This document shows, in pieces, positions 9,070-21,454 of a stretch of 35,499 bases of DNA; the first letter of the stretch is position 1; every line of letters starts with the position of its first letter. This DNA comes from a virus. Lineage: Duplodnaviria; Heunggongvirae; Uroviricota; Caudoviricetes. The notes under the pieces are model-generated. The model did no database searches. It was given only the letters and a program-made list of their open reading frames with translations, and was not told the DNA's origin. The position numbers and the translations under genes are program-made. The stretch lies in IMG/VR virus record IMGVR_UViG_2541047894_000004, one strand, 5' to 3'.

Positions 9070-9756
9070 ATGACCCCAATAAAAATATTTATGACTATTG
9101 CTGATTTCAAACGGCCTAAATTGGAGCTCCCAAACGGGGCAAACAAACTACTACTGCACTCTTGCTGTGCTCCATGTTCCGGTGAAGTGATGGAGGCGCT
9201 TCAGGCCTCGGGAATCGACTATACCATCTTTTTCTACAACCCGAACATTCATCCTCAGAAAGAGTATTTAATTCGTAAGGATGAGAATATTCGCTTTGCT
9301 GAACAACACGGCGTGCCATTTATTGATGCTGATTACGACACAGACAACTGGTTTGAACGTGCCAAAGGAATGGAATGGGAGCCCGAGAGGGGGATCCGTT
9401 GTACCATGTGTTTTGACATGCGTTTTGAGCGGACAGCGCTGTACGCTGCTGAAAATGGTTTCAGTGTGATCAGCAGTTCACTGGGCATTTCACGCTGGAA
9501 AAATATGCAGCAGGTTAACGACTGTGGGCGGCGAGCCGTCGCGCATTATCCGGGCATGGTGTACTGGGATTATAACTGGCGCAAGCAGGGCGGCTCGTCC
9601 CGCATGATTGAAATCAGCAAGCGCGAAAAATTCTATCAGCAGGAATATTGTGGCTGTGTGTATTCTCTGCGCGATACCAATCTACACCGCAAATCTCAGG
9701 GACGCCCTCTTATCAAAATTGGTCAACTCCACTACGGTAAAGAAGAGAAGGAGTGA
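9070..9756 (+). CDS. queH: QueH-like epoxyqueuosine reductase (DUF208 family)
   Basis: [20 protein letters not shown], EPERGxRC and C-terminal YCGC motifs as recalled for QueH/DUF208; own upstream region and downstream terminator. Confidence 0.72.
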
Positions 9757-9950: not shown

Positions 9951-10143
9951 GCAGGTTAGCCTCTTACGTGCCGAAAGGCAAGGAGAAGCAGGCTATGAAG
10001 CAGTAAAAGGCGATGTTAATCGCCCTGATCGTCATCGGTTTAACCGTCATAGTGACGGCACTGGTAACGAGGAAAGACCTCTGCGAGGTACGAATCCGAA
10101 CCGGGCAGACGGAGGTCGCTGTCTTCACAGCTTACGAACCTGA
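9949..10143 (+). CDS. mok-like overlapping reading frame
   Basis: 64-aa ORF starting upstream of and overlapping the hok frame, as mok does in hok/sok loci. Confidence 0.4.
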   Translation: MQVSLLRAERQGEAGYEAVKGDVNRPDRHRFNRHSDGTGNEERPLRGTNPNRADGGRCLHSLRT

Positions 10144-10150
10144 GGAGTAA
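9995..10150 (+). pseudogene. hokD: Hok/Gef-family toxin gene (HokD/RelF-like) with an in-frame TAA at codon 4; 45-aa ORF possible from the internal ATG at 10013
   Basis: Reads MKQ*KAMLIALIVIGLTVIVTALVTRKDLCEVRIRTGQTEVAVFTAYEPEE; AGGAG RBS 9 nt before the ATG at 9995; the internal ATG lacks a good SD. Confidence 0.7.
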
Positions 10151-10220
10151 GAGACCGGGCGGGAGAGTAATCTCCCGCCACCTCTGATATGTCAGGCATC
10201 CTCAACGCACCCGCACTTAA

Positions 10221-10240
10221 CCCGCTTCGGCGGGTTTTTT
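10221..10240 (+). terminator. Rho-independent terminator of the hok-like transcript
   Basis: CCCGC-ttcg-GCGGG stem-loop followed by T6. Confidence 0.75.
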
Positions 10241-10358
10241 CACGTACTGTGGTTGTGAATACGATTGGTATTAGGCTATGCTAACAACATTAGCCTGACT
10301 AATTTTGTATTGACTTAATTTTTGTTAAAGAACAGGACGAAGACGTAAGGGTACACCA

Positions 10359-10538
10359 ATGAGCTACGCACTAAAAAAACACCCGCGATTGACTATTCCC
10401 CCTCGCGATAAAAGCGTTGTGGCAGCTCCGCGCCCGGCTATCGATGAAAATTGCACTCATCGTGAGCAGGTGAAAAATGCTTTCGATTTCGGTTTTTCTC
10501 GTTACGAGAAGGCAATGGAAGATCTTTCAAAAGTGTAA
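10359..10538 (+). CDS. Small protein upstream of doc, candidate antitoxin, 59 aa
   Basis: Hand-translated: MSYALKKHPRLTIPPRDKSVVAAPRPAIDENCTHREQVKNAFDFGFSRYEKAMEDLSKV; stop 10-19 nt before the doc start; no family assigned. Confidence 0.5.
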   Translation: MSYALKKHPRLTIPPRDKSVVAAPRPAIDENCTHREQVKNAFDFGFSRYEKAMEDLSKV

Positions 10539-10556
10539 TGATGGGTATTGTGCTCT

Positions 10557-11042
10557 ATGGCTGAGATTGTTGAAGGAGTGCACTACCTTTCGGTTGATGA
10601 TCTTACTGAAATTAATCGCCTTTTAATTGAGCTTCAAACACCAGATGAACCTGTTGGTGTGCTGAGTGTTGATAATTTAAGTTCTTCTCAGTCTCGTCCC
10701 AGTATGGTTCGATGGTATGAGCAAACCAACGACATGTTTGTACTGGCATCGGTATTGATTGAAAGTCTGATTCAGAATCATCCATTTGCCAATGCAAACA
10801 AGCGCACAGCAATGATGGCTGGTGCGGTTTTTTTATTGTTAAATGGATACGAATTAACCGCACCAGGCGATGAAGTTGTGGAGATGGCTGAGGGGCTGGC
10901 CTGTAAAATTTATACACGAGAAGAGCTTGAAAATTGGTTGTGTTATTGGTCTCGTGCGTATGACAGTCGGGAATTATGTAAAACAGGCGCAACTATTGTT
11001 TTGTATGAAACTATCAAGCTTAAAATAGAACAGCAAAACTAA
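10557..11042 (+). CDS. doc: Doc-family toxin (Fic/Doc fold), 161 aa
   Basis: HPFANANKR fits the Doc signature H-x-F-x-(D/N)-(A/G)-N-K-R; small gene immediately upstream; alternative TTG start at 10548. Confidence 0.78.
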   Translation: MAEIVEGVHYLSVDDLTEINRLLIELQTPDEPVGVLSVDNLSSSQSRPSMVRWYEQTNDMFVLASVLIESLIQNHPFANANKRTAMMAGAVFLLLNGYELTAPGDEVVEMAEGLACKIYTREELENWLCYWSRAYDSRELCKTGATIVLYETIKLKIEQQN

Positions 11043-13334: not shown

Positions 13335-13410
<76 letters not shown>

Positions 13411-13413
13411 TAT

Positions 13414-13488
<75 letters not shown>

Positions 13489-15438: not shown

Positions 15439-15575
15439 AATCTTAACTACAATATGATTCATTTTGATGATTGTTTCATAAGGAACAGTGAAGTAAGATC
15501 TAAGATGAGTTAAATTTTATACAGTATAATCATAATGTTGCAGCAAGGTGGTTATAATTGAAAGAATATTTAGAT

Positions 15576-17033
15576 ATGAATACATCTCATGTAAGAGTTG
15601 TTACTCATATGTGTGGGTTCCTGGTTTGGCTCTATAGTCTTTCAATGTTGCCACCAATGGTTGTAGCATTGTTTTATAAAGAAAAAAGCCTGTTCGTTTT
15701 CTTTATAACTTTCGTTATATTTTTTTGCATTGGTGGCGGAGCGTGGTATACAACTAAGAAATCTGGTATTCAATTACGTACCCGTGATGGGTTTATTATA
15801 ATTGTAATGTTTTGGATTTTGTTTTCTGTTATTAGTGCATTCCCTTTATGGATTGACTCAGAACTTAATTTAACGTTTATTGATGCTCTATTTGAAGGGG
15901 TTTCTGGAATAACAACAACAGGAGCAACTGTAATTGATGATGTTAGTTCATTACCTCGGGCATATTTGTACTATCGGTCACAGTTAAATTTTATAGGTGG
16001 CTTAGGAGTTATTGTTCTGGCGGTTGCTGTATTGCCATTATTGGGTATTGGTGGTGCAAAGCTTTATCAGTCAGAAATGCCAGGGCCATTTAAGGATGAC
16101 AAACTTACTCCCCGCCTGGCCGATACGTCACGGACACTTTGGATAACTTATTCTTTATTAGGTATTGCTTGTATTGTCTGTTATAGACTTGCAGGAATGC
16201 CTTTGTTTGATGCTATTTGTCACGGGATATCCACAGTTTCGCTTGGTGGTTTCTCAACTCATAGCGAGAGTATCGGATATTTTAATAACTATTTGGTTGA
16301 GCTGGTGGCTGGTTCTTTTTCCCTGCTATCGGCTTTCAACTTCACCCTTTGGTATATTGTTATTAGCAGGAAAACGTTAAAACCTTTAATCAGAGATATT
16401 GAACTTCGTTTCTTTCTGTTAATAGCCTTAGGGGTGATCATTGTTACCTCTTTCCAGGTCTGGCATATAGGTATGTATGACTTGCCTGGAAGTTTTATTC
16501 ATTCGTTTTTTCTTGCCAGCTCCATGCTCACTGATAATGGTTTAGCTACGCAGGATTATGCAAACTGGCCCACGCACACGATAGTGTTTTTGCTGTTGTC
16601 AAGTTTCTTTGGGGGATGTATAGGTTCAACTTGTGGTGGAATTAAGTCACTTCGATTTCTTATACTTTTCAAACAAAGCAAACACGAGATAAACCAGCTT
16701 TCTCATCCCAGAGCGTTGTTGAGTGTAAATGTAGGAGGGAAGATAGTTACAGATCGTGTAATGAGGTCTGTATGGAGTTTCTTTTTTCTTTATACTCTCT
16801 TCACGGTGTTTTTTATACTGGTGTTAAATGGTATGGGATATGATTTTCTTACATCATTTGCAACAGTGGCTGCATGTATTAATAATATGGGATTAGGTTT
16901 TGGGGCTACTGCATCGTCATTCGGAGTGCTTAATGACATTGCAAAATATTTAATGTGCATAGCTATGATTCTTGGTCGCCTTGAAATTTATCCTGTTATT
17001 ATATTGTTTTCAGGTTTTTTTTGGCGCTCCTAA
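15576..17033 (+). CDS. trkG: Potassium uptake protein TrkG (TrkH family), 485 aa
   Basis: Polytopic membrane protein; MNTSHVRVVTHMCGFLVWLYSLSMLPPMVVALFYKEKS... matches recalled Rac TrkG; AT-rich relative to its neighbours. Confidence 0.93.
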   Translation: MNTSHVRVVTHMCGFLVWLYSLSMLPPMVVALFYKEKSLFVFFITFVIFFCIGGGAWYTTKKSGIQLRTRDGFIIIVMFWILFSVISAFPLWIDSELNLTFIDALFEGVSGITTTGATVIDDVSSLPRAYLYYRSQLNFIGGLGVIVLAVAVLPLLGIGGAKLYQSEMPGPFKDDKLTPRLADTSRTLWITYSLLGIACIVCYRLAGMPLFDAICHGISTVSLGGFSTHSESIGYFNNYLVELVAGSFSLLSAFNFTLWYIVISRKTLKPLIRDIELRFFLLIALGVIIVTSFQVWHIGMYDLPGSFIHSFFLASSMLTDNGLATQDYANWPTHTIVFLLLSSFFGGCIGSTCGGIKSLRFLILFKQSKHEINQLSHPRALLSVNVGGKIVTDRVMRSVWSFFFLYTLFTVFFILVLNGMGYDFLTSFATVAACINNMGLGFGATASSFGVLNDIAKYLMCIAMILGRLEIYPVIILFSGFFWRS

Positions 17034-17170
17034 TATATGGCTGATTTATAATTGTGAGTTTAATATTATATTGACTCACTCATTGATCCAATACCTAACT
17101 TTACCAGCAACACCTCCGCCCCCAGTAGCACTGGCTGCTGGGGTGCGTTTTATTCATAAAGCAAGGCTGT

Positions 17171-17962
17171 ATGAGCGAGAAATTGAAGATCGTCTATCGC
17201 CCTTTACAAGAACTGTCTCCGTATGCACACAACGCCAGGACACACAGCCCTGAGCAGGTGGCACAACTGGTAGAAAGCATTAAGCAATTCGGCTGGACTA
17301 ATCCGGTGCTGATTGATGAAAAGGGCGAAATTATTGCTGGTCACGGTCGCGTTATGGCGGCTGAAGTGCTCAAAATGGATTCCATTCCGGTCATCGTTCT
17401 GTCTGGTTTGATGGATGATCAGAAAAAGGCGTACCGCCTGGCAGATAATCGCCTGCCGATGAATGCTGGCTGGGATGAAGATCTGTTACGGATGGAGCTG
17501 TCGGACCTAATCAATGCTGATTTTGATGTCTCCCTGACAGGCTTCAGCCCGACAGAAATTGATGAACTGTTGACGGATGTTTTGCCCGGTACAGAAAATG
17601 AGGAGGAGCCGTATACGACGAAAATTGATACGCCTGTTTATGAGCCGTCGGGCGGTAAACCGGATATCAGTGAACTGTACGACGATACGAAAACTCAGGA
17701 GCTGATCAGCCGGATACGTTCGGCGTCTCTTGAGCCTGATATTGAGAAATTCCTCCTGTGTGCGGCAGAACGTCACACGGTGTTTAATTTCAGCAGAATT
17801 GCGGACTATTACGCTCACGCCCCCGCTGAAATTCAGTGTTTTTTCGAGGAGTCGGCGCTGGTGATCATTGATTATCAGCAGGCTATTGAAAATGGATTTG
17901 TCCGGATGACGCAGCGCATGGTGGAGATCATGCATGGTGGTGAGGAGGAGGAATATGCGTGA
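17171..17962 (+). CDS. ParB-like nuclease domain (ParB/Srx fold) protein, 263 aa
   Basis: N-terminal ParB-like motifs (YAHNARTHSPEQV..., GHGRVMAA); acidic C-terminus; located upstream of terminase. Confidence 0.75.
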   Translation: MSEKLKIVYRPLQELSPYAHNARTHSPEQVAQLVESIKQFGWTNPVLIDEKGEIIAGHGRVMAAEVLKMDSIPVIVLSGLMDDQKKAYRLADNRLPMNAGWDEDLLRMELSDLINADFDVSLTGFSPTEIDELLTDVLPGTENEEEPYTTKIDTPVYEPSGGKPDISELYDDTKTQELISRIRSASLEPDIEKFLLCAAERHTVFNFSRIADYYAHAPAEIQCFFEESALVIIDYQQAIENGFVRMTQRMVEIMHGGEEEEYA

Positions 17963-18887
17963 TGATTTTTGCGCCTTTATTCTGACTCACGGGCGACCGG
18001 ACAAAGTTCTGACTTACCGGACGTTGCGTCGTGCTGGCTATACCGGGAAAATTTTTATCGTTGTTGATGATGAAGATAAGACACGGCATCAGTACATGGC
18101 TGAATTTGGTGAACAGGTGCTGGTGTTTTCCAAAGCCGATATCGCCAGTCGTTTTGACGAAGCCGATAATTTCGGTGACCGCCGCTCAATTTTTTACGCC
18201 CGTAATGCCTGTTTCGACCTGGCAAAACTGGTCGGGTGTAAATACTTCATTCAGCTCGATGATGATTATCACGAGTTCCAGTTTCGGGTGGATCGCAACT
18301 ATGACCAGGCCTATTTTCCGATAAGGAAACTGGATGCGATCCTTTCTGAAATGCTGGCGTACTACGAATCAATACCTGCTCTTTCCATCGCTATGTCGCA
18401 GGGCGGGGATTTTCTTGGTGACAATGGCGGCCATGCTTCGTGGGTAAAACGCAAGGCAATGAACAGCTTTATCTGTTCGGTTGACCGACCGTTCTCATTC
18501 ATGGGGCGCATTAACGAGGATGTGAATACGTACACGAATCTCGGTCGCCGTGGTGAATTGTTTATGACGATCGGTGCTGTCCAGTTAGGGCAGAAACAGA
18601 CGCAGAAAAACAGCGGCGGAATGACCGAGCTGTATCTGGATTCCGGAACCTACGTTAAAAGTTTTTACTCCGTCATGTATGCGCCGTCGTGCGTAAAAAT
18701 CTCACTGATGGGAGCCAGCCATAAACGCATTCACCATCAGGTCACCTGGAACAACGCTGCAGTAAAAATCCTTCACGAAAAATACAGGAAGAAGACACCC
18801 TGCATATCAATAGGGGTGACAAATGATTCCGTATTCGAAAGTCGAGTCTCTGGCAGCGTGCCGGATGACTGCACAACAAATCGCTGA
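17955..18887 (+). CDS. Hypothetical protein, about 310 aa, possible GT-A-fold nucleotide-sugar transferase
   Basis: GAGGAGGAGG RBS; KIFIVVDDEDK and QLDDDYHE motifs resemble GT-A DxD signatures; assignment is tentative. Confidence 0.55.
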   Translation: MRDDFCAFILTHGRPDKVLTYRTLRRAGYTGKIFIVVDDEDKTRHQYMAEFGEQVLVFSKADIASRFDEADNFGDRRSIFYARNACFDLAKLVGCKYFIQLDDDYHEFQFRVDRNYDQAYFPIRKLDAILSEMLAYYESIPALSIAMSQGGDFLGDNGGHASWVKRKAMNSFICSVDRPFSFMGRINEDVNTYTNLGRRGELFMTIGAVQLGQKQTQKNSGGMTELYLDSGTYVKSFYSVMYAPSCVKISLMGASHKRIHHQVTWNNAAVKILHEKYRKKTPCISIGVTNDSVFESRVSGSVPDDCTTNR

Positions 18888-19074
18888 CGTTCTGGATGTT
18901 GATCTGAACCGACTGAAAGAAAATCGGGAAGCAATGACAGATTTTTATGCGGCCATCCGTAAGGGCAGAGCGAAAGGTGAAGCCGAGTTACGGGCGGCAT
19001 TGTTTAAGCTTGCCAGAAAAGGGGATGCCTTTGCTCTGCGCGAACTACTCAGGGTGGATAAAAATCAGGACTAA
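18823..19074 (+). CDS. Hypothetical small protein, 83 aa, upstream of terS
   Basis: AGGGG RBS; overlaps the 3' end of the preceding gene by 65 nt; basic C-terminal half. Confidence 0.4.
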   Translation: MIPYSKVESLAACRMTAQQIADVLDVDLNRLKENREAMTDFYAAIRKGRAKGEAELRAALFKLARKGDAFALRELLRVDKNQD

Positions 19075-19077
19075 CTG

Positions 19078-20172
19078 ATGAGCAGACCGGACTGGGGGGC
19101 GTTGCAGCAGGAGTATATTGCTGAATACACCCGCTCCGGTATATCTCCGGTGGCATGGTGTGAAGCAAGGGGACTGAATTACGCAACAGCCCGTCGTTAC
19201 ATCAAAAAACCTCCGAAAAATGCGCAGACAGAAATGCGCAAAACTGCGCAAAAAAGTGCGCAGAAAAAATCTGCGCAGACTGCACAAAAGCGGAACGAAA
19301 AATCTCAGGAAAAAAAGCCAGTATTCGATGCGGGCCTGAATGAGGGCGACGCGGAGGAATTTTCGTTCTGTCCCGATGAATTCGGCATTTCTGACCAGCA
19401 GGCTAAGTTTGCGATGCTTGTTGCTCAGGGGAAAAAGCCGACAGAGGCGTACCGACTAGCCGGTTATGAGGGGCAAGGTGCGACAGCTAACAGCAACGCC
19501 AGTCGTATGCTTAGAAATGCCAGGGTTTTTCGCGCTATCAGCTACTTCCGCAATCAGTACCAGAAACGCTATACCGCAGACCTGGATTTACTGGTGAGTC
19601 AGTTGATGGCCATTGTCCTGGCCGACCCCAATCAGCTTGCACAATTTCGCCGTGTTAACTGCCGTTATTGCTGGGGCGAGAATCATCTCTACCAGTGGCG
19701 CGATATAGCAGAATTCGACAAGGCAGCGGCGCAGGCTTCCAGAGATGGCAAACCCGAACCGGAATATGGAGGCCTCGGCTTTGTTGATAACGCCATACCC
19801 AATCCGGACTGCCCGAAGTGCTGCGGTGAGGGAACGGGACAGCTTTATATGGCTGATACCACTCTGCTTGATGGGGATGCGCGGCAATTATATGCAGGGG
19901 CAAAACTCGGAAAATTCGGCGTTGAGATCCTGCTGGAGGATAAGGCTGCCGCCCGGCGTGAATTGTTGCGTTTGCTTTCTGCTGGTGGGGCTTTATGTGC
20001 AGATAAGCGGCTACAGGAACTGGAAATTGAACGGCGCAGAATGGAAAACCAGAAGCTGCGCAAAGAGATCGAAACGGTGGAAGATAATGAACATCCCCAG
20101 CCTGTGGCGATCAATATTAATGTGGTTGATGCCAGAGTAAGGAGTGATGAAGATGATCTCTCCGACGCTTAA
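19078..20172 (+). CDS. terS: Terminase small subunit candidate, 364 aa
   Basis: Immediately upstream of and overlapping terL; N-terminal HTH-like region; contains an internal TGCGCA repeat array. Confidence 0.65.
   Translation: MSRPDWGALQQEYIAEYTRSGISPVAWCEARGLNYATARRYIKKPPKNAQTEMRKTAQKSAQKKSAQTAQKRNEKSQEKKPVFDAGLNEGDAEEFSFCPDEFGISDQQAKFAMLVAQGKKPTEAYRLAGYEGQGATANSNASRMLRNARVFRAISYFRNQYQKRYTADLDLLVSQLMAIVLADPNQLAQFRRVNCRYCWGENHLYQWRDIAEFDKAAAQASRDGKPEPEYGGLGFVDNAIPNPDCPKCCGEGTGQLYMADTTLLDGDARQLYAGAKLGKFGVEILLEDKAAARRELLRLLSAGGALCADKRLQELEIERRRMENQKLRKEIETVEDNEHPQPVAININVVDARVRSDEDDLSDA
19221..19286 (+). repeat. Array of five TGCGCA hexamers plus one degenerate copy within terS
   Basis: TGCGCA at 19221, 19235, 19245, 19257, 19272 and TGCACA at 19281, spaced 10-15 bp; encodes the low-complexity peptide NAQTEMRKTAQKSAQKKSAQTAQK. 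Confidence 0.6.
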
Positions 20173-21454
20173 TGTGCCTCAGGCGCGATTTCTTTCAATG
20201 CCCCATAAATTTAAAGCCTATATTGCTGGTTTTGGCTCGGGCAAAACATGGGTTGGGTGTGGCGGCATATGCAAGGGGATTTGGGAGCATCCAGGTATAA
20301 ATCAGGGATATTTTGCGCCAACGTATCCCCAAATTCGCGATATTTTTTACCCTACAGTGGAAGAAGTTGCTGCTGACTGGGGATTGAACGTAAAAATTAA
20401 TGAGGGAAATAAAGAGGTTCACTTTTATTACGGACGCCAGTATCGGGGAACCACTATCTGCAGATCGATGGAGAAGCCACAAACGATCGTCGGTTTCAAA
20501 ATTGGTAATGCGCTGGTGGATGAACTGGACATTTTGCCGAAGGAAAAAGCCAGAACGGCGTGGCGCAAGATAATTGCGCGTATGCGTTATAAGATTGATG
20601 GACTTCGCAACGGTATTGACGTTACAACCACGCCGGAAGGATTCAAATTTGTCTACGAGCAGTTTGTTAAAGCCGTGCGTGAAAAAACAGAGCTGGCCTC
20701 ACTGTATGGTCTGGTGCAGGCATCTACTTTCGATAATGAAAAGAACCTGCCAGCAGATTACATTCCTTCGCTTCTTGAATCATACCCTCCAGAGCTGATT
20801 AAAGCCTATCTTCGAGGACAGTTTACTAACCTGACAAGTGGTACTGTTTACCATCAGTTTGACCGGAAACTGAATAATTGCGAAGAAGTGGAGCAGCCAG
20901 GGGAGCCGATTTATATTGGGATGGATTTTAACGTTGGAAAGATGGCGGGGATCGTCCATGTGCTGCGTTTGGGGCTTCCATGTGCGGTAACTGAAATCAT
21001 CAATGCCTACGATACGCCGGATATGATCCGCATCATTAAAGAACGCTTCTGGCTGTATGACGGGAATGATTACCGGAAAGTGAGGGAGATTTATATTTAT
21101 CCAGATGCTTCCGGAGATTCCAGAAAATCAAGTAACGCAAGTACGACGGATATAGCCCAGCTTAAGCAGGCTGGTTTTAACGTTGTGGTGAACAGCTCGA
21201 ACCCGCCAGTAAAAGATCGCGTTAACTCAATGAATGCAATGTTCTGCAATGCCAATGGTGAGCGTCGCTATAAAGTTAATGTGAAGCGTTGTCCGGTATA
21301 TGCCGAATCTCTGGAGCAACAGGTCTGGGATGATAAGGGGGAGCCTGATAAAAAATCTGGCAATGATCACCCGAATGATGCCGGAGGTTATTTCATCGTT
21401 AAGCAATTCCCTATTGTCAAACCGACCGGAAGAGTCACATCACTTCGGATTTAA
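20153..21454 (+). CDS. terL: Terminase large subunit
   Basis: Walker A-like AGFGSGKT near the N-terminus; AAGGAG RBS 8 nt before the ATG at 20153; position between terS and portal. Confidence 0.85.
   Translation: MISPTLNVPQARFLSMPHKFKAYIAGFGSGKTWVGCGGICKGIWEHPGINQGYFAPTYPQIRDIFYPTVEEVAADWGLNVKINEGNKEVHFYYGRQYRGTTICRSMEKPQTIVGFKIGNALVDELDILPKEKARTAWRKIIARMRYKIDGLRNGIDVTTTPEGFKFVYEQFVKAVREKTELASLYGLVQASTFDNEKNLPADYIPSLLESYPPELIKAYLRGQFTNLTSGTVYHQFDRKLNNCEEVEQPGEPIYIGMDFNVGKMAGIVHVLRLGLPCAVTEIINAYDTPDMIRIIKERFWLYDGNDYRKVREIYIYPDASGDSRKSSNASTTDIAQLKQAGFNVVVNSSNPPVKDRVNSMNAMFCNANGERRYKVNVKRCPVYAESLEQQVWDDKGEPDKKSGNDHPNDAGGYFIVKQFPIVKPTGRVTSLRI

Follow-up and report, generated by a model that had tools for sequence, protein, structure and literature searches.

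A ParB-like protein and a TAGT-family glycosyltransferase form a conserved two-gene module upstream of the terminase genes in an Escherichia coli prophage and in diverse phages

The two genes of the cassette and their products

The DNA analysed here, referred to as the window, is the 35,499-nucleotide record IMGVR_UViG_2541047894_000004 of a virus of the Caudoviricetes, and the whole stretch corresponds to an intact Rac-like lambdoid prophage of Escherichia coli. Directly 5′ of its terminase genes lie two overlapping open reading frames (ORFs), the first encoding an acidic ParB-like protein, here called the partner, and the second a basic glycosyltransferase (GT), and the two form a conserved module and not a chance neighborhood. 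An initial annotation of the sequence had placed ORFs of 263 and 310 amino acids at positions 17171–18887, just upstream of the terminase; coordinates and lengths proved exact, and the location was confirmed, the cassette being followed by a small TerS-like ORF, TerS and TerL (Table 1).

The GT belongs to Pfam family PF20691 (TAGT, TET-associated glycosyltransferase), which it matches with an E value of 6.8e-36 and 124.6 bits (cut-off 27.5). The match covers residues 15–229 of the 317-amino acid translation of the longest mechanical frame (17934–18887), equivalent to residues 8–222 of the 310-amino acid protein, which starts at the ATG at 17955 (MRDDFCAF...) used by homologues and by RefSeq. 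PHROG 842 spans the whole GT (1e-103). TAGT is a GT-A family that contains the T2/T6 beta-glucosyl-HMC-alpha-glucosyltransferase (HMC, hydroxymethylcytosine) and is related to the base-J GT and to GREB1. In the AlphaFold2 (AF2) model, built like that of the partner from a shallow alignment, residues 1–150 were predicted with a local distance difference test score (pLDDT) mostly above 84, and the C-terminal half was poorly modelled. The top Foldseek matches in the PDB included SpsA, COLGALT1, glycogenin and SunS/ThuS (E values from 3e-5 to 1e-3) and were GT-A enzymes except for a few nucleotidyltransferases. The GT-A assignment, which had been made tentatively in the initial annotation, is thus correct; structure prediction gave no sign of an unrelated fold, and the confident half of the model matches GT-A enzymes. 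A profile of the GT found no match at E ≤ 1 among PDB chains, and the protein matched none of the PADLOC defence-system models.

The two peptides that had suggested a nucleotide-sugar site in this protein, KIFIVVDDEDK (residues 31–41) and QLDDDYHE (residues 100–107), are real and fall on family-invariant positions, as judged from 56 homologues from many phyla: D38 and D41 in the first and D102-D103-D104-Y105 in the second, D102-D103-D104 being the DxD motif. Every residue that is invariant in the family is present in the GT (R14, D38, D41, R83-N84, D102-D103-D104, N187-E188-D189 and H260-H261). Its R...DDD...ED signature (R14, D102–104 and E188-D189), invariant in these diverse homologues, is intact, and this is the catalytic signature described for DNA-modifying phage GT-A enzymes. 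The contextual feature that names the TAGT family, an association with TET/JBP, is lacking here. The GT ends in ~21 residues that are specific to E. coli and overlap the next ORF. At the other end of the gene, partner and GT overlap by 8 nt (ATGCGTGA); read from the sequence of this junction, where a Shine-Dalgarno-like element precedes the GT start codon, the GT is in all probability translationally coupled to its partner. The charges of the two proteins are complementary, with an isoelectric point (pI) of about 8.8 (family median) for the GT and about 4.6 for the partner.

The partner is the full-length form of ynaK of E. coli K-12, where the gene is reduced to an N-terminal stump annotated as 87 amino acids. 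The acidic tail noted in the initial annotation is real (GGEEEEYA), and the acidity extends beyond it, the whole protein having a pI of 4.5 and a net charge of about -26. The ParB/sulfiredoxin-like character that the annotation had ascribed to the N-terminus was borne out by searches of the nucleotide-binding domain (NBD), which has the ParB-CTPase fold: it matches Pfam ParB_N above the cut-off (E = 2.5e-6, 27.9 bits, cut-off 26.3) and PHROG 620 (3e-89), a profile search found PDB chains of Noc and ParB at 4e-5, and Foldseek matched its AF2 model to ParB-CDP, Noc, KorB, PadC and sulfiredoxin. In profile searches the NBD came closest to the ParB domains at the N-terminus of DNA methyltransferase fusions from phages and prophages (PHROG 498, 2.5e-50; PADLOC MTase_II, 1.8e-38), and when the whole partner was compared with the PADLOC defence models, only its ParB domain matched, again to the N-terminus of MTase_II. 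Box II of the NBD reads GHGR (G57, R60) in place of GERR and Box III reads ADN (N93), with G57 and N93 shared by at least 95% of partners and R60 by at least 70%.

The NBD is followed by an acidic linker and a helical C-terminal domain (CTD). Within the linker, which is disordered in the AF2 model, lies the peptide P-Y148-T-x-K-I-x-x-P155-x-Y157-E-P (17606–17650), invariant in 55 partners. In the same 55 sequences the invariant residues of the CTD are L195, R201, A211, Y214, E226, D234, A238 and G242, so that the CTD and the preceding peptide hold ~11 invariant positions, including Y148, P155 and Y157. The NBD is much more variable, with only N21, G57, N93 and D102 comparably conserved. The strictly conserved partner of the GT is therefore the ~100-amino acid CTD, not the ParB NBD. 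No Pfam family matches the CTD.

In a genome with a sequence 100% identical to the window, the Prokaryotic Genome Annotation Pipeline (PGAP) calls the intact 263-amino acid ynaK ORF a C-terminally truncated pseudogene (locus L001:18001–18258, equivalent to 17171–17428 of the window), apparently because the model that gives the name derives from the K-12 stump. Full-length ynaK is consequently under-annotated in RefSeq. Over-expression of the K-12 stump, which holds part of the ParB domain, has been reported to raise the minimum inhibitory concentrations of six antibiotics 3–6-fold (PMC12924614).

Distribution of the pair and architectures of the partner

Relatives of the GT were scanned in one genome per species, giving 62 loci from Proteobacteria, Bacteroidota, Firmicutes, Planctomycetota, Actinobacteria, Ignavibacteria and others, with 39–60% identity outside the enterobacterial loci. 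A partner ORF lies directly 5′ of the GT, usually overlapping it, in 58 of the 62, and the four exceptions are at contig ends or truncated. This adjacency, together with the fusion of both proteins in P0388 described below, strongly supports the functional coupling of the pair that the initial annotation had proposed. The pair is also found in the Lactobacillus phages c5, LL-Ku, Ld17, phiLdb, PMBT4, phi jlb1 and JNU_P11, in Nocardia phage NTR1 and in the haloarchaeal virus HHTV-2, for which a literature search found no report on DNA modification, and in 191-kb Vibrio phages a partner consisting of the CTD only lies 5′ of the GT. Among 5426 complete E. coli genomes, 1566 contain a match, and 889 of these cover at least 80% of the cassette.

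The position beside the packaging genes recurs as well. A large-terminase gene, from one of several unrelated families, lies within ~2 kb 3′ of the pair in 33 of the 44 loci with enough downstream sequence, a slightly uncertain number as it counts as terminase the family F31, later shown to be the portal. In the contexts annotated with Pfam, the same layout is seen with terminases of the GpA, HK97 and T4 types. Clustering of the neighboring ORFs of the 62 loci gave no third conserved family beyond terminase and portal; DNA methylase, single-stranded DNA-binding protein (SSB), VRR-NUC and PcfJ/K neighbors are lineage-specific. In the virulent cos phage c5 (L155:1–1713), partner and GT are ORF1 and ORF2 and start 79 nt after cos, and the c5 partner might be loaded onto DNA within or close to the packaging site.

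When only the CTD was used as query against 1.8 billion representatives, 1178 cluster representatives were retrieved. Among the 150 listed, the CTD is at or near the C-terminus, and most of the proteins have 250–300 amino acids, as expected for NBD plus CTD, with some of ~130. A CTD-only partner of ~133 amino acids is found 5′ of the GT in loci L101, L106, L109, L120, L136 and L139 and in Vibrio phage pv27, whose CTD is 52% identical to that of the window. In six of these seven cases the pair sits in a replication module, the exception being L120, where it lies ~2 kb upstream of a terminase gene. The order in L109, L106 and L136 is PolA, CTD, GT and a DnaN-like clamp gene, with an SSB gene called before PolA in L109 and L106 (L136 starts at the contig end); L101 has a primase-helicase neighbor, L139 has SNF2 helicase and 5′–3′ exonuclease neighbors, and in pv27 a processivity factor, a primase and helicases are encoded nearby. 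Most CTD-only partners have an xLF or LFG peptide in their first 12 residues (for example MKQSELF, MIQKTLF and MQMELFGF), compared with one of 100 NBD-bearing partners, and P0343 and P0384 are also listed among the CTD-only partners with such a start. The peptide resembles the bacterial beta-clamp-binding motif, and by analogy CTD-only partners are predicted to bind the clamp.

Partner and GT may also be joined or accompanied by other genes. P0388 is a single TAGT-NBD-CTD protein of 534 amino acids, followed by a second TAGT, TerL and the portal (loci L146 and L147); a Dam methylase gene lies two genes 5′ of it. Two GT paralogues are present in L106, L136 and L143 too, and such paralogue pairs may make a disaccharide product. 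In L107 a fusion of a methyltransferase domain, ParB and the CTD precedes the GT, with weak Pfam matches that fall below the curated cut-offs. Genes for a UDP-glucose dehydrogenase and an NAD-dependent epimerase/dehydratase lie 3′ of the GT in L139 (6844–9104), which fits a nucleotide-sugar donor. A radical-SAM gene is found directly 3′ of the GT in L143 (6860–7819) and in L134 (family F99). In L148, four GT2 genes lie behind the capsid gene (17837–20316) and may serve virion glycosylation, and the ParB-TAGT pair stays upstream of terS.

Setting of the cassette in the prophage

The prophage is 99.9% identical across 33 kb to that of E. coli strain CH4811, in which it is integrated beside ttcA. 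The entire prophage in the near-identical genome measures 45–50 kb from intR to the tail fibres, and its ends contribute only int, xis, ralR, tail fibres, lom and cdtABC. Genes and features around the cassette follow the order lysis genes, trkG, a hairpin, the 263- and 310-amino acid ORFs, the small TerS-like ORF, TerS, TerL, portal and late genes. No good promoter consensus was found between the trkG hairpin and the start codon of the ParB-like gene; flanked by a terminator and terS and lacking a promoter-like site of its own, the cassette is probably carried on the Q-antiterminated late transcript. The small ORF that follows the GT resembles the central portion of certain small terminase subunits (PHROG 309, 8e-23) and is conserved in this position in enterobacterial loci.

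Several other features of the prophage were recorded. The 5′ part of terS contains five A-rich direct repeats (19203–19279) with a TGCGCA(GA) core, spaced 14–36 nt start-to-start within repeat families, which also fold as minus-strand hairpins; they could be a pac or TerS-binding site, or a mere Lys/Ala/Gln-rich coding repeat. Relative to CH4811, ~2.85 kb of recE is deleted, and the ORF at 1985–2530 on the minus strand joins the first ~45 amino acids of RecE to the C-terminal part of RecT. The nin-like region (~10000–11042) has two toxin genes, one of the Hok/Gef family, as annotated in the near-identical locus, and one of the Fic/Doc family (10548–11042). A QueH-type epoxyqueuosine reductase gene is found at 9070–9756 on the plus strand (Pfam QueH, 1.9e-65), E. 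coli normally using QueG, and genes for tRNA-Thr(tgt) and tRNA-Gly(tcc) lie 5′ of the lysis genes (13335–13410 and 13414–13488). QueH and the tRNA genes hint at a phage interest in tRNA modification and decoding, and no connection was found between them and the GT cassette.

Table 1. Coordinates of the cassette and adjoining features in the window, and of genes for CTD-only partners in other loci
Feature	Position	Strand	Remarks
trkG potassium-transporter moron	15558–17033		between lysis genes and cassette; G+C content 0.39–0.40 (15558–17150)
Terminator-like hairpin (17120–17143) and T-run	17120–17150	+	10-bp stem with 7 G-C pairs; 28 nt 5′ of the ParB-like ATG
Partner ORF	17171–17962	+	ATG start; 263 aa; ends GGEEEEYA
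NBD, ParB/Srx (ParB-CTPase fold)	17171–17575	+	aa 1–135
Acidic linker	17576–17677	+	aa 136–169; disordered in AF2 model
CTD, helical	17678–17935	+	aa 170–255; acidic tail after it
Coupling junction	17942–17962	+	Shine-Dalgarno-like GAGGAGGAGG (17942–17951); GT ATG 17955; partner TGA 17960–17962
GT	17955–18887	+	310 aa; basic, pI 8.4; RefSeq "GREB1-related protein" WP_020245001.1
DxD motif codons (D102-D103-D104)	18258–18266	+	invariant
Small TerS-like ORF	18823–19074	+	83 aa from first ATG; RefSeq start 18865 gives 69 aa
TerS	19078–20172	+	packaging context, outside cassette
TerL	20144–21454	+	packaging context, outside cassette
CTD-only partner, L109	5607–6011
CTD-only partner, L106	3848–4252
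CTD-only partner, L136	2007–2414
CTD-only partner, L101	2748–3146
CTD-only partner, L120	19–420
CTD-only partner, L139	5610–6011

Candidate acceptors and a proposed role in DNA modification

All TAGT-type enzymes characterised so far act by O-glycosylation, either of a hydroxymethyl group or of a sugar. An enzyme that could make such an acceptor was sought among the window proteins, in the whole prophage, in two phage genomes, in six Pfam-annotated contexts and in the 62 loci. Pfam identified no dioxygenase, ThyS or methylase among ten early or nin-region proteins of the window; the assignments obtained were DnaC-like, DUF1627, DUF977, QueH, Doc, DUF1367, YbcO, a Q-like antiterminator and a RecE′-′RecT fusion. 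In the whole prophage, taken from the PGAP annotation of the near-identical genome, there was no TET/JBP dioxygenase, thymidylate-synthase-like hydroxymethylase or DNA methylase. The complete phages c5 and phi jlb1 have no annotated TET/JBP dioxygenase, hydroxymethylase or DNA methylase, and a DNA polymerase is likewise not annotated in these two genomes; the unannotated ORFs in them and in the prophage are mostly short. No source of a hydroxymethyl-pyrimidine was found in the six contexts with precomputed Pfam matches (±10 kb), and the unannotated families F38, F22 and F23, examined against Pfam and PHROGs as hidden dioxygenases, gave nothing informative. As no hydroxymethyl-pyrimidine source was found, the module appears to be self-contained.

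The best reading of the pair, in our judgement, and one in which our confidence is evenly divided, is a late-expressed, partner-dependent DNA glycosyltransferase. A role in DNA modification, which the initial annotation had suggested along with anti-restriction and packaging roles, is favored by the DNA-methylase type of the ParB domain, by the replisome neighborhoods of the CTD-only forms and by the 2026 precedent of a ParB-dependent DNA dioxygenase; accompanying it, we infer DNA as the substrate, adaptor and clamp roles for the partner, late timing and an anti-restriction benefit. The basic GT would be the catalytic subunit, taking its nucleotide sugar at the DxD/Mn site and probably supplying the contact with DNA. 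The acidic 263-amino acid protein would be its obligatory partner, in which the CTD and the invariant Y-T-x-K...P-x-Y-E-P peptide would bind or activate the GT and the NBD would act as a nucleotide-controlled, clamp-like module keeping the enzyme on duplex DNA. Where the NBD is absent, in phages that encode a replisome of their own, the sliding clamp would take over the tethering, as suggested by the xLF(G) peptide of the CTD-only partners and by the DnaN-like gene that adjoins them. The cassette would be transcribed with the late genes and progeny DNA marked right before packaging, the presumed purpose being to blunt restriction or other DNA-targeting defences of the next host. A narrower version, in which the pair needs no hydroxymethyl precursor and attaches sugar to a canonical base or to the ends of ordinary unmodified DNA, is put forward tentatively, as a proposal that we think more apt to fail than to hold.

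This proposal can be set against several known systems. Phage TAGT enzymes that act on 5-hydroxymethylcytosine (5hmC) in DNA, such as those of T2 and T6 (Pyle et al. 2024; PMC13216743), share with the window GT the Pfam family, the GT-A fold, the R...DDD...ED signature and the phage origin. Their acceptor is supplied by a dCMP hydroxymethylase or by a C5-methyltransferase with 5mYOX, whereas no such supplier was found here and the window GT is locked to a CTD-bearing partner. The window GT shows 23–26% similarity to T4-like (Aeromonas phage) TAGT members, and T6 itself was not matched at E ≤ 1e-3. More distant are the base-J glucosyltransferase (JGT) and GREB1, whose GT-A domains are distantly related to TAGT according to the literature; both are eukaryotic, and JGT needs 5-hydroxymethyluracil made by JBP, while GREB1 is reported to act on a protein.

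A dependence of a DNA-modifying enzyme on a ParB-like protein has a recent precedent in 5mYOX176/ParB176 (O'Toole et al. 2026, PMC13229309), in which phage thymine dioxygenases need a neighboring orphan ParB-like protein on double-stranded DNA. These activators lack a DNA-binding domain and are built of an NBD, a short helical segment, a long disordered linker and a CTD, and structure predictions put the dioxygenase at the position of the canonical ParB DNA-binding domain (PMC13229309). The same orphan ParB-like architecture stands beside the enzyme in both systems, and terminase genes are often on the same contigs, but the enzyme is a dioxygenase there and a TAGT glycosyltransferase here; the likeness is one of architecture, and the dependence of the window GT on its partner is predicted. 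The most similar ParB domain is that of the prophage fusions to N6/N4 DNA methyltransferases (PHROG 498, PADLOC MTase_II; bioRxiv 10.1101/2025.10.10.680097), which share the logic of a ParB fold joined to a DNA-modifying catalytic unit; they are one chain, whereas here a separate GT would be engaged through a dedicated CTD, except in P0388. ParB of ParABS systems, Noc and KorB have the same N-terminal fold, with Box II and Box III partly kept in the partner, but unlike them the partner is strongly acidic, and no HTH (helix-turn-helix), parS, ParA or canonical dimerisation domain was detected. For the CTD-only forms, the closest parallel is the T4 alpha-GT, which binds the gp45 clamp (PMC13216743) and is thereby held on a ring sliding along DNA. 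The CTD-only variants with an xLF peptide near DnaN-like genes look analogous, although the T4 enzyme has a GT-B fold and a 5hmC acceptor, unlike the GT-A enzyme of the window, and clamp binding is predicted for the CTD-only partners.

Earlier papers had remarked on the frequent proximity of GT-A genes to ParB-like and terminase genes and on the abundance of solitary TAGTs; the latter are described as common and uncharacterised (PMC13216743), with 288 of 753 GT-bearing phage genomes containing a solitary TAGT and ~65% of GT contigs lacking a 5mYOX or ThyS gene. Our literature search found no paper that defines the pair, the CTD or the substrate. Roles for TAGT and ParB, according to papers that cite the work, were reportedly first predicted by Iyer et al. 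in 2013.

A number of observations weigh against a DNA glycosyltransferase. The partner has a degenerate P-motif with GHGR for GERR, no HTH or other recognisable DNA-binding domain was detected in it, and its acidity is extreme, and AF2 confidence is low both for the CTD and for the C-terminal half of the GT. The searches of the prophage, of c5 and phi jlb1 and of the six Pfam-annotated contexts count on the same side: with the acceptors known for TAGT enzymes and no hydroxylated base here, a DNA target requires either unprecedented chemistry or a hidden precursor enzyme. Finally, GREB1, a TAGT-domain protein, has been reported to O-GlcNAcylate a protein, the estrogen receptor ER-alpha (PMC7968844). 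This last report, like the lack of an evident DNA acceptor, is also an argument that the pair glycosylates protein, be it the partner's own linker peptide in a glycogenin-like priming reaction, TerS, a virion protein or a host defence protein. Y148-T149...Y157 is invariant in all 55 partners despite the disorder of the acidic linker that contains it, the Foldseek matches include glycogenin and the peptide S-glycosyltransferases SunS/ThuS, and the module adjoins virion and packaging genes. We nevertheless consider a protein target unlikely. The Foldseek matches are generic GT-A enzymes, the CTD-only versions belong to replication modules at a distance from structural genes, the GT2 genes that follow the capsid gene in L148 are separate from the ParB-TAGT pair, which remains upstream of terS, and the NBD is of the type fused to DNA methylases.

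If the GT is instead a conventional TAGT, acting on 5-hydroxymethyl-pyrimidines or on a first sugar, the precursor would come from a phage or host enzyme that went unrecognised. No other chemistry has been demonstrated for the family members of phages and kinetoplastids, and O'Toole et al. report thousands of divergent 5mYOX-like sequences that carry no TET/JBP annotation. Six of the 62 loci have a C5-cytosine methylase gene within 6 kb and seven have an N6/N4 methylase gene, and the radical-SAM genes 3′ of the GT in L134 and L143 could be counted as well. No candidate was found, however, in a prophage of 45–50 kb or in two complete small phage genomes, and no third family co-occurs with the pair across loci. 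E. coli is not known to make a hydroxymethyl-pyrimidine, and we rate this possibility as quite improbable. A packaging accessory, in which a ParB-like nuclease or pac/cos-recognition factor works with the terminase and the GT is a mere passenger, would account for the place of the pair immediately 5′ of terS/terL in the loci counted above (F31 portal included), whatever the terminase family, and for its start so close to the c5 cos site; but the GT is conserved to the same degree as the partner, to which it is coupled or fused, CTD-only versions sit in replication modules with no terminase nearby, and it is the CTD that is conserved, not the putative nuclease fold, which makes such a role very improbable. 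Still less probable is an envelope or RNA target, that is, an O-antigen seroconversion-type GT or the glycosylation of queuosine in tRNA linked to QueH. The prophage does carry QueH and two tRNA genes, eukaryotes glycosylate queuosine, and O-antigen is often modified by prophage GTs, but a GtrA- or GtrC-like partner is not present, no QueH gene was seen beside the pair in other loci, and the ParB/CTD pairing and replisome contexts point to DNA. Some database records, lastly, read "chromosome (plasmid) partitioning protein", as though the partner belonged to a partition system segregating a plasmid-like prophage. This was rejected, there being no ParA and no HTH in the window and a TIGR00180 score of 36 bits (cut-off 58.45); the prophage encodes its own integrase and occupies the Rac site next to ttcA, and the same gene is found in virulent phages such as c5, so that we give a partition role almost no credence. 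No convincing parS-like palindrome was found in 16900–19300.

A DNA glycosyltransferase stays our preferred reading, and it is directly testable in E. coli by routine genetics and nucleoside mass spectrometry, since the pair is native to an E. coli prophage and K-12 has no intact copy. A large and tightly conserved subset of the "solitary" TAGTs is obligatorily paired with a dedicated, putative adaptor domain, to which a ParB-CTPase fold is usually attached, the pair forming a self-contained unit. If DNA is what the pair modifies, it would represent either a DNA modification not seen before or a novel way of arriving at one, the principle of delivery or activation by ParB-like proteins would extend from dioxygenases to glycosyltransferases, and a possible tool for the enzymatic sugar-tagging of DNA would be at hand. 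If the acceptor were ordinary unmodified DNA, this would be a new modification chemistry in thousands of temperate and virulent bacterial and archaeal phages, carried by roughly one-sixth to one-third of the complete genomes of E. coli and built on interchangeable DNA-tracking modules, either a ParB-type clamp or a sliding-clamp-binding peptide. The finding would bear on the evasion of restriction by temperate phages and on possible sequencing artefacts with induced prophage DNA.

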